Below, piece after piece: positions 2,464 to 18,666 of a DNA stretch of 32,437 nucleotides (position 1 is the stretch's first letter; each line of letters begins with the position of its first letter). The stretch spans positions 334,081 through 366,517 of the forward strand of contig CAWGRK010000010.1 of assembly GCA_963824995.1 (NCBI GenBank), written 5' to 3'. Origin of the DNA: an uncultured Actinomycetes bacterium (lineage in GTDB: Bacteria; Actinomycetota; Acidimicrobiia; Spongiisociales; DATADW01). Position numbers and translations under genes: made by a program. Below the pieces are notes generated by a model. That model was not told where the DNA came from. It was given only the letters and a program-made list of their open reading frames with translations, and did not search any database.

Positions 2464-3327
2464 ATGAAACGACACGCCACAAGCCTCGCCCTCATCTCAC
2501 TGCTGCTCGCCGCCTGCGGGACGACGAGCGGAGCGGCGACCACCGTTGCAGCCACTACCGACACCACCCCCGTCCCGACGACGCTTCCCGCCGCCGAGGA
2601 GGCCGTCCTTGTGGTGGAGGACGTCGGTGGATTCGTCCCCATCGAGTTCGCCCTCGGTCGGGGGCCGCGCTACGTCCTCACAAGTGACGGGCGGCTCATC
2701 TTCCAGGGACCGATGATCGAGATCTTCCCGCAGCCGCTGTGGCCCAACTACCAGGTCCGCCAGCTGACCGATGAAGAACTCGACCTGGTGATGGACTCCA
2801 TCCTCGCGACCGGGATCGACCAGATCACCGACGAAGTGGACGACAATTCGGCCAACATCATCGCCGATGCCTCAACCACGGTGATCACCTATAACGACGA
2901 GCAGGGATCTCACCGCTTCGAGGTCTACGCCCTCGACATCGGTGAGGGGCAGAGCGAGCAGGTGCAGCGGCTCGCCGGACTGGTGCGGGTGCTCGACGGG
3001 GTGGCCAGCGCCGAGGGCGAGGTCACCGAACTCGAGCCGGAGCGCGTCCAGGTGATCGCCCAGGAGGCAGAGCCGACCGGCGACGAGTTCGAGCAGGTGG
3101 TCGAGTTTCCCATCGACGACGACCCTGCCTCATGGGACGACCTCGAGGGACAGCAGGGCATCAAGTGCGCCTCGTTCGAGGGCGAGGACGCCCAAGCACT
3201 GGTCGAAGGGTTCAAGGAAGCCAACGCGGCGACGCTCTTCGAGGCCGGTGACACCACGTGGCGGGTCTACCCACGGCCTCTCCTCCCCGGCGAGGAGCCG
3301 TGCGTGGTGCCGGCATTCGCCGGCTGA
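2464..3327 (+). CDS. Uncharacterised acidic lipoprotein
   Basis: Signal peptide with lipobox LLLAAC, Thr/Pro-rich linker, acidic globular domain with two Cys. Confidence 0.85.
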   Translation: MKRHATSLALISLLLAACGTTSGAATTVAATTDTTPVPTTLPAAEEAVLVVEDVGGFVPIEFALGRGPRYVLTSDGRLIFQGPMIEIFPQPLWPNYQVRQLTDEELDLVMDSILATGIDQITDEVDDNSANIIADASTTVITYNDEQGSHRFEVYALDIGEGQSEQVQRLAGLVRVLDGVASAEGEVTELEPERVQVIAQEAEPTGDEFEQVVEFPIDDDPASWDDLEGQQGIKCASFEGEDAQALVEGFKEANAATLFEAGDTTWRVYPRPLLPGEEPCVVPAFAG

Positions 3328-13490: not shown

Positions 13491-15438
13491 ATGAGCTTCG
13501 AGTTCGCCAACACGCCCGAAGAGGTCGACAGCATCACCGAGGAGGCTATCGAGCGCGCCGACGCCATCGTCGAGGCCGTCATCGCCTCCTCCCCGCGGAC
13601 CACGGCGACAACGCTGCTCCCCCTCGATGAGATCGGCACGGTCGTCGGTGACTCATTCGGGCGGGGCGCTTTCATGGCGTTCGTCCACCCCGACCCGGAG
13701 GTGCGCCAAGCTAGCCGTCAGGCAGAGGAACGCCTGCAGAAGTGGGTCGTGGACCTCGTCTTCAGAGACGACCTCTACCAGGCGGTCAAGGAGTACTCCG
13801 AGACGGAAGAGGCGAAGGCGCTGACCGGCGAGCGGGCGCGGCTGCTCGAGTTCACCATGCGCGACCTGCGCAAGGCCGGTCACGAGCTCGACCAAGCGGC
13901 CAGAGAAGAAGCGAAACGGATCGCGGCCCGCCTCGTGGAGCTTTCAGTCGCTTTCGACAAGAACATCGCCGATTGGGAGGACCATCTCACCGTCCCCGCC
14001 GAGGGCCTCGATGGCCTTTCCGATGACTACATCGCCCGACTCCAACCCGGCGAACTCGAAGGGACATACAAGGTCACGATGGCCTACCCCGACGTCATCC
14101 CGTTCATCGAGAACGCGCGAGCGGCGCGACCTCCGCCAAGAGCTCGCCTTCAAGTTCAACACGCGTGCCGTCGAGACCAACACCCCATTGCTCGAGGAGG
14201 CGGTCGAGCTGCGTCGCCGCACCGCAGAGCTATTCGGCCTCCCATCCTGGGCCCACTACGTGATGGACGAGCGGATGGCGAAGGAGCCCGGTCAGGTTTC
14301 GGACTTCTACGACAACCTCACCCCTCCGCTGACCGAGAAGGGCCGTGCCGAGTTGGAGGTGATGGCAAAGCTCCTCGAGCAGGACACCGGTGAGTCGACG
14401 GTTCAGGCGTGGGACTGGCGCTACTACGACACGCAGATCCGGCGTCGTGACTTCGGGGTCGACCCGAGCGAGGTCGCCGCCTATTTCCCGCTCGAGCAGG
14501 TGCTCGATGGCATGCTCGAGATAACCGGTGAAGTGTTCGGTATCGATTACCGACAGCTCGACGACCATCCGGTTTGGCACCCTGATGTAACGGCGCGGGC
14601 CATCGTCGATCGCGCCACCGGTGAAGAGATCGCCACCGTCTTCATGGATTTGTTCCCCCGCGAGGGGACCTACAGCCACGCCGCCGCCTTCACCCTGGTC
14701 GGCGGGAGGCTCGAGCCCGACGGCAGCTACCGGCGTCCGGTCTCGACGATCGTCGCCAACCTGACCAAACCGACCCCCGAGCGACCTTCACTGCTCCAGC
14801 ACTCCGAGGTGGTCACGCTGTTCCACGAGTTCGGCCACATCCTCCATCAGACCCTGACCCGCGCCGAGATGGTCCGGTTCTCCGGGAGCAGTACCGAGGG
14901 GGACTTCATCGAAGCGCCATCCCAGATCATGGAGCATTGGTGCTGGAAGCCCGAGGTTCTCCAACGGTTCGCCCGCCACCACGAAACCGGCGAGCCCATC
15001 CCCGCCGACCTGGTAGAGCGCCTCGTCGCAGCACGCAACCTGGACGTGGGGCTGCTGACACTGCGTCAGATCTCTCTCGGTGTCCTCGACCTCGGGCTGC
15101 ACGGTCCTTGGGACGAGCTGGATCTCGATGCGATAGCACGCAAGGCGAACGCGGTGGCGTTGGTCCCCTTCCACGAGGGCACGTTCTTCCCCGCCAGCTT
15201 TGGGCACATGATGGCGGGTTACGACGCCGGCTACTACGGCTACCTGTGGTCGGAGGTCTACGGCGACGACATGTTCAGCCGCTTCGATGAGGAGGGTGTC
15301 ACCTCGAATCAGGTCGGGAAGGACTACCGCCGCACCGTCCTCGAGCCGGGGGGCAGCCGCGACGGAGCCGACATCCTGCGCGACTTCCTGGGGCGCGAAC
15401 CCGACAACCGAGCCTTCCTCAAGAAGCTCGGAATCTGA
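13491..15438 (+). CDS. M3A family oligopeptidase (thimet oligopeptidase-like), +1 frameshift near 14118
   Basis: DLFPREG, HEFGH zinc motif, DFIEAPSQ, YDAGYYGYLWSEV and FLGREP. N-terminal part lies in the frame of ORF 13299..14393. Confidence 0.92.
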
Positions 15439-15475
15439 TCCCCACTGGAGGCACCGACTAGCCCGTTGCCCGCCG

Positions 15476-15504
15476 GGAACCATTGGACCCGGCCATACGT
15501 ACAA
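15476..15504 (+). promoter_or_regulatory. Putative ECF-sigma promoter GGAACC-N16-CGTACAA
   Basis: GGAACC 15476-15481 and CGTA 15498-15501. Closely matches the motif at 2428. Confidence 0.55.
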
Positions 15505-15506
15505 AT

Positions 15507-15610
15507 CGTTTGACGGCGACTAATCCGCCCGGGCCACCGGCTCCGAACAAGCGGGTACGGGCACCCAGCGGAATGGGCGAGCATCGTCAGGCGTTGAATA
15601 GATGCCCGGG
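15507..15610 (+). promoter_or_regulatory. Candidate structured 5' leader
   Basis: P1 15507-15516/15584-15593, P2 GCCCG/CGGGC, P3 CCCA/TGGG, and TCCGC (15524-28) complementary to the P3 loop GCGGA (15568-72). Confidence 0.35.
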
Positions 15611-15624
15611 TCAGGAGGCCCGAT

Positions 15625-15822
15625 ATGAGTACGGACACATTGAAGGGTGAGAGGATCCAGAGCGGGAGGCGACCCTCACGCACGTACGCCAAGGGGCGGG
15701 TCTGCGGCGTGAACGGGTGTGAAACCAAGCTCTCGATGTACAACCGACGTGAGTTCTGCCACATCCACGCCCCGGTGAGGTTCCCCCGGGTCAGAGGCCG
15801 CATCCTGCCCGGGAGCGCCTGA
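15625..15822 (+). CDS. Small basic protein with a C-x4-C-x12-C-x2-H putative zinc finger
   Basis: AGGAGG SD at 15613-15618, GC3-biased codons, sequence RVCGVNGCETKLSMYNRREFCHIH. Confidence 0.8.
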   Translation: MSTDTLKGERIQSGRRPSRTYAKGRVCGVNGCETKLSMYNRREFCHIHAPVRFPRVRGRILPGSA

Positions 15823-15831
15823 CACAGATCG

Positions 15832-15897
15832 CGCCGGGATTTCCCTTCCTTCCCCGGCGTCCGACGAGGCCCCGGACCCCCTCCCCGGGGCCTCGTC
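15832..15897 (+). ncRNA. Twin hairpins with C-rich loops (6C-RNA-like; also a likely terminator)
   Basis: CGCCGGG-atttcccttccttc-CCCGGCG and GACGAGGCCCCGG-accccctcc-CCGGGGCCTCGTC. Confidence 0.5.
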
Positions 15898-15902
15898 ACG
15901 TA

Positions 15903-15953
15903 CCAACCCTGGGTTGGAGAGAACCTCGTCGGTAGTTGCCAACCCCGGGTTAG
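15903..15953. repeat. Two AACCCNGGGTT palindromes 36 bp apart
   Basis: ccaaccctgggttgg 15903-15917 and ccaaccccgggttag 15939-15953. Confidence 0.7.
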
Positions 15954-15964
15954 AGTGCAGATAG

Positions 15965-15999
15965 ACCCCACCCCCGGTGGGGTGGGTACGTGCTATGAT
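15965..15999 (+). promoter_or_regulatory. Putative CsoR operator and extended -10
   Basis: C-tract/G-tract inverted repeat ACCCCACC-ccc-GGTGGGGT (15965-15983) followed by GGGTA. TGCTATGAT at 15991-15999 lies 6 nt before the ATG. Confidence 0.7.
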
Positions 16000-16005
16000 C
16001 CCCAT

Positions 16006-16311
16006 ATGCAGCAACATCACAAGCAGACCTCGCTCAACCGTTTGAAGACGGTGCGTGGTCATCTCGACGGGGTCATCGCCATGGTCGAGAACGAGCGGTA
16101 CTGCCCTGAGATCATGAAGCAGGTATCGGCGCTTCAGGCCTCGCTCGAGCGGGTCAATCGCGTTCTCCTCCAGAACCACCTGGAGACATGCGTCAGCGAC
16201 GCCGTCGCCGAGGGGCGCACCGCCCAGATCGTGGACGAGCTCCTCGAGACCATGAAGTACACAACTGCGGTCACCGGGCCGGTGGCGATCGAAGCCGAGG
16301 TGACCCGATGA
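16006..16311 (+). CDS. csoR: Copper-sensing repressor, CsoR family
   Basis: NRLKTVRGHLDG...YCPEIMKQ...NHLETC (Cys-His-Cys ligands); first gene of the cop operon. Confidence 0.9.
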   Translation: MQQHHKQTSLNRLKTVRGHLDGVIAMVENERYCPEIMKQVSALQASLERVNRVLLQNHLETCVSDAVAEGRTAQIVDELLETMKYTTAVTGPVAIEAEVTR

Positions 16312-16517
16312 CCCACATCAGCTTCTCGGTTCCTGACATCTCCTGCGAGCACTGCAAGGAGTCGATCGAGGGAGCGGTCGGCGTGCTCGACGGGGTCGAA
16401 TCGGTCGAGGTCGGCATCGAATCCAAGGTGGTGGCGGTCGATTTCGACGGCGCCGCCCTCTCGCGGCAGGACATCGTCAGCGCGATCGAAGGCCAGGGTT
16501 ACGAGGTGACCGGTTGA
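16308..16517 (+). CDS. copZ: Copper chaperone (HMA domain)
   Basis: ISCEHC motif and C-terminal QGY. ATGA overlap with csoR. Confidence 0.9.
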   Translation: MTHISFSVPDISCEHCKESIEGAVGVLDGVESVEVGIESKVVAVDFDGAALSRQDIVSAIEGQGYEVTG

Positions 16518-18666
16518 ACGAGACCGAGCAGATCACATTCGAGGTCGAGGGGATGACATGCGCTTCGTGTGCCCTGCGGGTTGAACGCGTGCTCTCCCGC
16601 CAGCCCGAGGTGGACAACGCCGCGGTGAACTTCGCCACCGGGACGGCGGTGGTGAGCGTCTCCGACCCGGTCGAGCCGGAGAGCCTTCGCAAGGCCGTGC
16701 AGCGTATTGGCTACGACCTGCACGCCGTGAAGTGATGATGAGCCGGCCCACGACGCCGACGAGCACGCCGGTCACGGTGCCACCTGGGCCGTCTTCTGGT
16801 GGGCCGCCGCTTTATCTGCACCTCTGCTGGTGCTGGGCATGTTCGGACCGGATGCGACTTGGAGCCGGCTGCTCCAGTGGGCGCTGGCGACCCCGGTGGT
16901 CCTCGTATTCGGCTGGCAGTTCCATCGCAACGCGGTGTTGCGGCTCCGCTCCGGCGACGTTTCGATGGACACCTTGATCTCGGTGGGGACTCTCGCCGCC
17001 TATGGGTACTCGGTCTGGGCGATTGCCGCCGGTGAGGAGATCTTCTTCGAAGTGGCGGCGGTGATCGTCACTCTTGTGCTCCTGGGACGCGCCTTGGAAG
17101 CTCGAGCAAGAGGCCGCGCCTCGGCTGCGATAAGCAAACTGCTCGAACTCGGCGCCAGCGAGGCAGTCGTTCTCTCCGATGGCGTCGAGACGGTGGTTCC
17201 CATCGATCAGGTACGCGTCGGTGATCTCATGGTGGTCCGACCCGGAGGGAAGATCCCCACCGACGGCGAGGTGTTGGACGGCGAATCCGCAGTCGATGAG
17301 AGCATGCTCACCGGCGAGTCGCTGCCCGTCGAGAAGAACCCCGGCCACGCGGTCTACGGGGCGACCATCAATCAGAACGGGCGTTTGTTGATAAGGGCGA
17401 CTGCGGTGGGCGCCGGCACAGCCCTCGCCGGCATCGTCAGGGCGGTCGAGGAGGCTCAGAACTCCAAGGCGCCCGTCCAGCATCTCGCCGACCGGGTCTC
17501 CGCCGTTTTCGTCCCGGTTGTCGTGCTGATAGCGGTGATCACGTTCGTCGGATGGTTGCTGTACGGGGGCGACGTTGCCATGGCCATGCAGGCGGCAGTG
17601 GCGGTCCTCATCATCGCCTGCCCCTGCGCCCTGGGGCTGGCAACACCGACCGCGGTCATGGTGGGCAGCGGTCGGGGCGCCGAGTCGGGGATCCTCTTCC
17701 GCACCGGGGAGGCAATCGAACGGTCGGCTCGGGTGACCGACGTCGCCTTCGACAAGACCGGCACGCTCACCACCGGCGTCATGAGTCTCACCGAGGTCGT
17801 CGTGCTCGGTGATCGTGCCGAGTTCCTGCGCAGGGTCGCCTCGGTGGAGGCAGCCAGCGAGCACCCCATCGGGCGTGCAGTGGCTCTAGGTGCCGAGGAG
17901 GCGGGCGTCGAGTTGACCGCCGTGACCAGGTTCAACGCCATCGGCGGTCGAGGTGCAACCGGAGAGGTGGACGGCGTCGAGGTGGTGGTGGGCACACCCA
18001 AGCTGCTCGCCGACCGAGGACTCTGGGTGCCTGGTGCGCTATCCGACCGCATGGCCGCAGGTCGAGGGTGAGGGAGCGACGGCCTTCCTCGGTGGCTGGG
18101 ACGGTGAGGCGAGGGGGATGATCGCCGTGGCCGATACGCCCCGCCAGAGCGCCGCGGGCGCCATCGCCGCTTTGGGCGAACTCGGCCTCGCCACCGCCCT
18201 CATCACCGGCGACAACCAGAGGACGGCGGAAGCGGTGGCGGCTCGGCTCGGGGTAGCCCGGGTGGAGGCCGAGGTGACGCCGGAAGAGAAGGCGGGTGCC
18301 ATGCACCGGTTGCGGAGCGGCAACAGAGTCGTTGCCTTTGTCGGTGACGGGATCAATGACGCGCCCGCCCTGGCCGCAGCCGACGTGGGTATGGCGATCG
18401 GGACGGGCACCGACGTCGCCATCGAGACCGCCGACGTGGTGCTGATGGCGGGTGACCCCGCGGTGGCGGTGACCGCCATCCGCCTGGCGCGGCGGACCCT
18501 CGCCGTGATCAGGCAGAACCTCTTCTGGGCGTTCGCCTACAACGTCGCCGCCATCCCCCTTGCCGCGTTCGGCCTGCTCGACCCGATGATCGCCGCTGCC
18601 GCCATGGCACTGTCAAGCGTCTCGGTGGTCACCAACTCGCTTCGGTTGCGGCGTTTCGACCGCTGA
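16514..18666 (+). CDS. copA: Cu(I)-translocating P1B-type ATPase, +1 frameshifts near 16730 and 18060
   Basis: GMTCASC HMA domain, His-rich linker [37 protein letters not shown] and MALSS, spread over three frames. Confidence 0.93.

Follow-up and report, generated by a model that had tools for sequence, protein, structure and literature searches.

A gene for a small basic Cys3His protein and a conserved two-hairpin RNA element form a candidate regulatory transcript in the Acidimicrobiia

The stretch of DNA analysed here (the window) comprises 32,437 nt of contig CAWGRK010000010.1 from an uncultured Actinomycetes bacterium (assembly GCA_963824995.1, positions 334,081-366,517), and all coordinates given below are positions within this window. 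Between a gene for an M3 peptidase on the 5' side (14011-15438; Pfam Peptidase_M3, E = 2.4e-122) and a gene for a CsoR-type repressor on the 3' side (starting at 16006; Pfam Trns_repr_metal, E = 3.5e-25) lies a compact unit on the forward strand, in which two tandem promoter-like motifs and a Shine-Dalgarno (SD) sequence precede an open reading frame (ORF) for a basic protein of 65 amino acids (aa) with a Cys3His pattern, which is followed by two hairpins with C-rich loops. An earlier note, made from the letters of the sequence, had described this arrangement as a self-contained unit and had suggested that its transcript might serve both as an mRNA and as a small RNA (sRNA). We compared the unit across 80 loci, kept from 303 loci that a pattern scan for the protein family had found and derived almost entirely from metagenome-assembled genomes of the Acidimicrobiia; counts out of 80 below refer to this set.

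A two-hairpin RNA element conserved behind the gene

Hairpin 1 (15831-15860, forward strand) consists of an 8-bp stem and a 14-nt C/U-rich loop, AUUUCCCUUCCUUC, and hairpin 2 (15863-15897, forward strand) of a 13-bp G+C stem closed by the loop ACCCCCUCC. The pair folds with a minimum free energy of -45.7 kcal/mol (z = -5.18), which none of 200 shuffled sequences equalled in stability, and the two C-rich-loop hairpins described in the earlier note are present. As RNAalifold recovered only hairpin 2 from a plain MAFFT alignment, the structure was given by hand to a covariance model built from 15 sequences (termed R1), which matches the whole element at 15825-15900 on the forward strand with 66 bits. 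Of 85 sources, 56 have an R1 match (E <= 0.01) immediately behind the stop codon, which corresponds to 53 of the 80 loci, with L005 and L017 counting as one place. In an alignment of 48 R1 matches, which is fitted to the model and contains two rows that are opposite-strand matches, 97.0% of the cells are paired and 12 of the 16 pairs show changes on both sides; none of 500 shuffles attained these values, and controls in which the structure was slid along fell to 36-56% paired. Changes on both sides affect five of the six pairs of helix 1 and seven of the ten pairs of helix 2, which is 100% paired and is conserved in the sequence of its stem too. The two hairpins are a conserved RNA element with compensatory changes that is coupled to the gene, which makes the reading of the transcript as a dual mRNA/sRNA a reasonable one. 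R1 finds a single copy in the window's genome, and a search of 41 relatives with stricter filters returned matches in 13 genomes. In 12 of these the match falls immediately behind the gene and is the only one; in the thirteenth it is weak (E = 5.5e-4) and located elsewhere.

The loops of the element are long and rich in C, with median lengths of 20 and 10 nt and median C fractions of 0.55 and 0.64. One of the pentamers CCUCC, CCCUC or CUCCC is present in 39 of 46 first loops (85%) and in 32 of 46 second loops (70%), whereas among the other hairpin loops of these loci 96 of 2074 (4.6%) have one, as do 3% and 7% of random 10-nt and 20-nt windows, respectively. The element loops carry CCCUCC-type anti-Shine-Dalgarno (anti-SD) motifs.

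The gap between stop codon and element has a median of 14 nt and is at most 23 nt in 39 of 56 cases; in the window hairpin 1 begins 8 nt past the stop (15831 versus 15822). Because this gap is so short, the element is a 3' untranslated region (3' UTR) and not a gene with room for its own promoter, though a promoter internal to the coding sequence could still serve the RNA. Hairpin 2 probably also forms the 3' end of the transcript, though it is not followed by a U tail: a consensus scan of 15400-16050 called no canonical terminator, and no T run follows the hairpin. A subgroup of loci (L025, L035, L056-L058) has a longer spacer of 37-68 nt between stop codon and hairpin 1, with a conserved CTAAGCT/CTAAACT/CTAGAGT block some 15-20 nt before the hairpin, which may give the RNA of this lineage a promoter of its own; the spacer of L035 additionally holds a GGAAC-N16-CGTT motif.

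Inspection by eye of 20 loci from other classes revealed no two-hairpin C-rich element, and one of them (L122) has a single hairpin with a C-rich loop. Neither of two paralogues in the window's own genome, described below, has C-rich hairpins, and one of them has a plain G+C terminator hairpin instead. As the hairpins are missing from many homologues and from both paralogues, the RNA is an accessory of one orthologue group and not of the family. The co-occurrence of the hairpins with homologues, one part of a check that the earlier note had proposed, does not extend to 27 of the 80 loci, to the loci inspected from other classes or to the paralogues, where the two-hairpin element was not found.

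The protein, its upstream motifs and its surroundings

The coding sequence of the protein runs from 15625 to 15822 on the forward strand, stop codon included, and is free of stops in all 41 genomes of the order. The product contains 11 Arg, 3 Lys and 4 acidic residues, giving a net charge of about +10, and its Cys and His residues are arranged as C27-x4-C32-x12-C45-x2-H48, so that the Arg/Lys-rich ORF and its Cys/His pattern are as the earlier note had stated them. A word-indexed search gave 21 small homologues, and six-frame searches matched the protein in all 41 genomes of the order with one to four copies each, a tally that counts two unpublished genomes (G010 and G021). In an even sample of the phylum the family is present in 78 of 301 genomes, a tally that counts nine unpublished ones, and is concentrated in few taxonomic families (20/21 genomes in f19, 13/13 in f24, 16/17 in f32); no member was found in this sample among the large families f31 (0/22) and f25 (0/14) or among f13 (0/4) and f14 (0/9), which are other families of the same class. 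A HMMER pass over 1.84 billion representatives returned 1751 clusters at E <= 0.001 and 206 at E <= 1e-10, and the proteins measure 47-133 aa among the 150 matches listed. The pattern C-x4-C-x10-14-C-x2-H is carried by 166 of 170 collected family proteins. In 139 aligned members C27, C32, Y39, C45 and H48 are invariant, which answers the earlier note's question as to whether the three cysteines and the histidine are conserved, and R25, T34, S37, N40, R57 and G58 are conserved in at least 90%.

Judged by sequence comparison, the protein belongs to a large family without a name. It has no match in NCBIfam, and its sole match in Pfam is CxC6 at 18.1 bits, under the cut-off of 27.5. Seventeen diverse members gave only sub-threshold matches to EsV_1_7_cys and CxC6 (E = 0.01 for EsV_1_7_cys in one member), and the DUF1127 domain was found by Pfam neither in these nor in the 65-aa protein. 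PADLOC matched none of five family proteins, and PHROGs offered only phrog_10853 (function unknown), weakly, in six of ten distant members. The nearest clusters in the ESM Atlas are nameless, and family members in the source records are annotated as hypothetical proteins. Profile matches to the PDB were non-significant, the best being the CHORD domain of RAR1 (E = 0.42) and the SBP domain of SPL5 (E = 0.49). With searches of Pfam, NCBIfam, PADLOC, the PDB and known folds all returning no significant match, the earlier statement that the protein could not be placed in a named family still stands. Three domains with C-x4-C Cys3His motifs, the first zinc site of the SBP domain, the CHORD domain and the EsV-1-7 repeat, have the same order of ligands and similar spacing; these are, however, eukaryotic or viral domains with a second zinc site that is absent from the 65-aa protein. 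An AlphaFold2 model from 22 sequences had a mean predicted local distance difference test score (pLDDT) of 64.5, and one from 139 sequences reached a pLDDT of 83.6 with a predicted template modelling score of 0.47 and is devoid of regular secondary structure.

Further members and variants were encountered along the way. The two paralogues in the window's genome (G000) lie at C9:86792-86968 (forward strand) and C1:222603-222746 (reverse strand), and both keep the Cys3His pattern and a PRxRG stretch; a weak 6C-like match (24 bits) is located about 4 kb from the C9 paralogue on the opposite strand. In a genome of the same genus (G004) the orthologue carries a frameshift some 24 codons in: translation from the start codon breaks off at 32 aa (L054), the remainder continues in another frame and runs past the normal stop (L009), and the RNA element is intact at 60.4 bits. 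Either the assembly is in error here or the gene is a pseudogene that retains its RNA tail. A distant member of the family, 60 aa as an ORF, is found at 3001-3183 of a 57-kb viral contig from IMG/VR (L144), where a gene for a DnaB-like helicase (phrog_19, E = 4.5e-65) flanks it on one side and a gene for a DNA primase (phrog_47, E = 1.1e-52) on the other, and a portal gene follows these. From this position it follows that phages carry the family in a replication module; tblastn of the 65-aa protein and of another member (P0102) against phage records gave no match.

Two motifs upstream of the gene resemble promoters for sigma factors of the extracytoplasmic function (ECF) type. The distal one, GGAACC-N16-CGTA, occupies 15476-15501 on the forward strand (GGAACC at 15476-15481, CGTA at 15498-15501), is kept in the genus and is present just as the earlier note had reported it. 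That account overlooked a second and better conserved motif, GGAAT-N17-CGTTG at 15570-15596 on the same strand, which starts 55 nt before the ATG, inside the supposed leader. Within 100 nt upstream, 46 of the 80 loci have a GGAA-N17-19-GTT motif, where the remaining sequence of these loci would predict 1.7, and 55 have a relaxed [G/T]GAA version, for which 2.5 are predicted; these proximal motifs cluster 55-70 nt before the ATG. A distal GGAAC(C)-N16-18-CGT[ACT] accompanies the proximal motif in 12 of the 80 loci, from several families, and the proximal motif is far more widely conserved than the distal one. Family members from other classes have an ECF-like motif in 11 of 20 cases, against 0.3 expected. 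By their -35 and -10 blocks, their spacing and their fixed distance before the gene the motifs have the form of ECF promoters, as the earlier note had proposed. For the SigH/SigR/SigE-type promoters of Actinobacteria we assume the consensus GGAA[T/C]-N16-18-[C]GTT, and on it we assign the proximal motif, which agrees in both blocks and in spacing, to the SigH/SigR type; the distal motif ends in CGTA in place of CGTT. No sigma-70-type promoter was called by the consensus scan of 15400-16050.

In the window's genome GGAA-N17-19-CGTT[GA] has 79 matches. It precedes genes for thioredoxin-TPR, ThiS-like, NifU-like, SufB, WhiB, luciferase-like oxidoreductase and F420H2 quinone reductase proteins, and a further match (h19) lies 46 nt before an ORF for a zf-HC2 anti-sigma factor, within the 3' end of an ECF sigma gene; these seven genes and the anti-sigma ORF are eight of 20 hand-picked downstream ORFs. 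Together they resemble the SigH/SigR thiol-stress regulons. The same genome encodes on its contig C3 (L119, 742-1831, reverse strand) an ECF sigma factor directly followed by an 82-aa zf-HC2 anti-sigma factor with HLRRCPPC, a pair like SigH/RshA or SigR/RsrA and a candidate regulator of the unit. Going by the motifs, the unit may be induced by stress.

The earlier note had also proposed a structured leader of about 115 nt. This did not survive comparison with shuffled sequences: 15508-15640 is no better folded than these (z = -0.92), 37 of 200 being at least as stable, and only a 16-nt hairpin around the SD recurs. Transcription from the proximal promoter would leave a leader of only about 25 nt. 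The strong AGGAGG SD noted earlier is in place at 15613-15618, 6 nt before the ATG at 15625, and the loop of the short hairpin CGGGUC-AGGA-GGCCCG (15607-15622, forward strand) contains the SD's AGGA. Of 78 loci, 48 can form a stem of 4 bp or more with the 3' arm beginning in the SD, where shuffled upstream sequence would give 18.1, and changes in one arm are matched by changes in the other (GGCC/GGCC, GGCCC/GGGCC, GGTCC/GGGCC, ACCTC/GAGGT); some other loci, inspected by eye, pair the SD with an upstream CUCC instead. Such a conserved hairpin would fit a control of translation start.

The surroundings of the unit are largely constant. In 56 of the 80 loci an M3 peptidase gene precedes the unit on its own strand, and in 57 a CopA-like gene follows it in the same orientation, accompanied by CsoR in 35 cases and by a regulator of the MerR type in 8; in 11 loci the entire unit is turned round between these neighbours. 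As its own promoter motifs and 3' hairpins are kept and it is inverted as a whole, the unit is self-contained, and on this point the earlier note was right. In the spacer between the hairpins and csoR, 15903-15955 consists of two copies of a palindromic repeat, 36 nt apart, with the core CCAACCC[T/C]GGGTT[G/A]G; with 71 copies in the genome, frequently paired at this distance, the core AACCCNGGGTT looks like a family of repetitive extragenic palindromic (REP)-like elements. Owing to this repeat the length of the spacer varies among genomes of the genus. Further on, 15964-16005 holds the G/C palindrome ACCCCACCCCCGGTGGGGTGGGT, then TATGAT 6 nt 5' of the csoR ATG; the palindrome also precedes csoR in many relatives, and together with TATGAT it looks like a CsoR operator over a leaderless promoter.

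Four metatranscriptome runs were compared, as contigs, with 15300-16100. One RNA contig of 254 nt (X9) covers 15576-15829 and another of 178 nt (X7) covers 15679-15854 and so extends across the stop codon into the hairpins, with 143 letters before it and 32 after it; they come from two studies, are 95-99% alike to the window and have a depth of 2-3. These contigs hint at joint transcription of gene and hairpins in near relatives. In a 223-nt contig from a further run (X8), 15835-15851, in the first hairpin's 5' half, is joined directly to 15891, so that 39 nt with the greater part of hairpin 2 are missing; the junction could be a strain variant, a jump of reverse transcription over a stable stem or an artefact of assembly.

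Readings of the unit and their rivals

We favour, at a probability of roughly 0.55, the reading of the unit as a candidate ECF-sigma-driven transcript of the Acidimicrobiia that encodes a basic zinc-knuckle protein binding nucleic acid and ends in a regulatory 3' UTR similar to 6C and CcsR RNAs. One or more ECF-type sigma factors would start transcription at one or both of the tandem GGAA...CGT motifs, and the small conserved hairpin around the SD would probably limit translation. The invariant C-x4-C-x12-C-x2-H would most likely hold one zinc ion, and the conserved RPSR and PRxRGR stretches would most likely contact nucleic acid. By analogy, the RNA of the 3' UTR would most likely outlive the mRNA or be cut from it and then pair with G-rich ribosome-binding regions of other mRNAs, in the manner of 6C RNA in mycobacteria and of the CcsR RNAs in Rhodobacter. 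A functional link between the protein and its RNA tail, such as that of CcaF1 with CcsR, may also exist. A bolder form of this proposal, in which the unit is an independently evolved counterpart of CcaF1-CcsR, the zinc-knuckle microprotein being the dedicated binding and maturation factor of the anti-SD sRNA cut from its own 3' UTR, the SD hairpin closing an autoregulatory loop with that sRNA and the 1751-cluster family, its phage members in replication modules included, forming a new class of small nucleic-acid chaperones, is speculative and we regard it as improbable.

Several observations weigh against the favoured reading. R1 has no match (E <= 0.01) in 27 of the 80 loci, and in five genomes whose locus is without the element it matches nowhere else; the protein therefore does not need the RNA. 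The best Rfam match on 106 nt (15810-15915) is CcsR1 with 29.2 bits (E = 6.8e-6), against a gathering score of 65.3, and the 6C model (RF01066, gathering score 47 bits) has no match at E <= 10 on 15810-15915 or on 14800-16600. Foldseek gave no match at E <= 0.001 in the PDB for the deeper AlphaFold2 model, and a wide VIA-align search with it none at Z >= 2 among 48161 chains; zinc and nucleic-acid binding are predictions from features of the protein sequence. The 20 ORFs listed as the possible regulon were chosen non-blind from the 79 motif matches, and reading through the ~90 nt upstream of the sigma gene on contig C3 revealed no ECF motif. The RNA contigs are of low depth and come from near relatives, they could include carried-over DNA, and their ends are not transcript ends; X9 moreover starts at 15576, upstream of the transcription start expected from the proximal promoter.

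Among the rival explanations, those that turn on the hairpins can be weighed together. The two hairpins might serve merely to terminate the gene's transcript and to shield the copper operon from read-through, without any role in trans, their C-rich loops being a by-product of G+C-rich DNA. The unit does end with the 13-bp G+C stem of hairpin 2, promoter and operator of csoR lie within about 100 nt downstream, some lineages (L069-L084) have one plain G+C hairpin instead, and the gene also occurs without the element. A plain terminator would not, however, lead one to expect long loops, 85% of the first and 70% of the second carrying the anti-SD motif where 4.6% of the other hairpin loops around them do, nor two hairpins in place of one with the stem sequence of the second conserved, and there is neither a T run nor a terminator called by the consensus scan. 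Several sub-threshold Rfam matches point away from it as well: besides CcsR1 these are Scr3202 (21.6 bits), ar7, ar14 and sX13, all of them sRNAs with C-rich loops, and in 6 of 11 loci from relatives the same families match below threshold behind the gene. We hold the terminator explanation to be rather unlikely. Another proposal, which we likewise judge unlikely, is that 6C RNA takes this form in the Acidimicrobiia, having been captured by the gene's 3' UTR or having arisen from it, and that the protein is an unrelated passenger. The best canonical 6C match in the window's genome has just 24 bits, against a cut-off of 47, and the order may therefore lack a standard 6C; yet the control for this genome search did not find 6C above the cut-off even in Corynebacterium, and the absence of 6C from the rest of the genome is therefore not established. 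What is known of 6C RNA cuts both ways, since it shares phylum and architecture of two hairpins with C-rich binding loops (PMC6486639), but the Rfam 6C model finds nothing in the element at E <= 10, even on the 106-nt piece, and the Corynebacterium RNA has a SigA/SigB promoter (PMC5014011) where the median of 14 nt from stop to element leaves little space.

The remaining rivals concern the protein. It may be a DNA-binding factor, such as a small transcription factor or a nucleoid or replication accessory, that acts independently of the RNA through its zinc knuckle and a possibly AT-hook-like PRxRGR tail. This is the most credible of the rivals, though still somewhat unlikely. Arg57 and Gly58 of PRxRGR are nearly invariant, the net charge is about +10, most family members have no RNA tail, the distant member on the 57-kb viral contig lies between DnaB-like helicase and primase genes, and there is the weak, non-significant profile similarity to the SBP DNA-binding domain (E = 0.49); set against this, no DNA-binding family or fold was matched significantly, and basic zinc knuckles bind RNA as readily as DNA. 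A part in copper homeostasis, with the Cys3His protein as a metal-handling or sensing partner of CsoR, CopZ and CopA, is very unlikely. A CopA-like gene, with CsoR or MerR where detected, does adjoin the gene in 68 of the 80 loci (57 downstream on the same strand, 11 with the unit inverted), and the association persists where the regulator switches from CsoR to the MerR type. But the M3 peptidase gene is an equally constant neighbour (67 of 80), as plain synteny predicts, orientation is not kept in 11 loci, and the unit has ECF-type motifs of its own while the cop operon has its own promoter and operator past the hairpins. Moreover, CsoR, CopA, MerR and M3 peptidase are near none of 20 loci from other classes and neither of the two paralogue loci, which makes a copper role across the family unlikely.

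To our knowledge no general sRNA chaperone has been described in high-G+C Gram-positive bacteria, a phylum from which Hfq and ProQ are not known. A basic zinc protein hard-wired to a 6C/CcsR-like RNA across much of a class would be a candidate for protein-assisted riboregulation in this phylum and, if the reading is true, a second, independent instance of a design that combines a small protein, a cuckoo-type sRNA in the 3' UTR and a stress sigma factor. As the protein family is large, nameless and tied to ECF-type promoters in several classes, the function of one member would annotate thousands of hypothetical proteins.

Likeness to CcaF1-CcsR and 6C RNA

Nowhere in the window does an Rfam family attain its gathering score, and literature searches for sRNAs of the Acidimicrobiia and for links to cuckoo or 6C RNAs, which were limited in extent, returned no relevant paper. 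For 6C RNA we assume a definition of two hairpins, each with a run of at least six C in its loop. In the window loop 2 has a run of five C and loop 1 seven C with a longest run of three, and relatives often have CCCCCUCCCCC.

In Rhodobacter sphaeroides the 71-aa arginine-rich DUF1127 protein CcaF1 is cotranscribed with CcsR1-4 from an RpoHI/RpoHII promoter, and the 3' UTR consists of two-hairpin RNAs with C-rich anti-SD loops (PMC8034643). The mycobacterial 6C RNA (B11) binds its targets via C-rich loops without a chaperone (PMC6486639), and 6C of Corynebacterium has its own SigA/SigB promoter (PMC5014011).

The CcaF1-CcsR arrangement (cuckoo RNAs, RF02791) and our unit have in common a gene for a small arginine-rich protein, an alternative-sigma (stress) promoter and a 3' UTR of two hairpins with C-rich loops. 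They differ in phylum, in the protein, which is of the Cys3His kind without DUF1127, and in the number of RNA copies, one in place of four. The promoter differs too, since ECF-like motifs stand where CcaF1-CcsR has an RpoHI/HII promoter. Each loop of the CcsR RNAs, which belong to the CIN1 subgroup of cuckoo RNAs, contains the anti-SD motif CCUCCUCCC, whereas most loops of the element carry the shorter CCUCC, CCCUC or CUCCC and the full nonamer is not typical of them. As regards 6C RNA, both belong to Actinomycetota and have two hairpins with C-rich loops as working parts (PMC6486639); the element is, however, a 3' UTR directly behind a coding gene, and 6C is a free-standing gene with a SigA/SigB promoter (PMC5014011). 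Because both models stay under threshold, the protein is not a DUF1127 protein and the element has no room for a promoter, the unit is by membership neither CcsR nor 6C, while by function it most resembles CcaF1-CcsR and 6C RNA.

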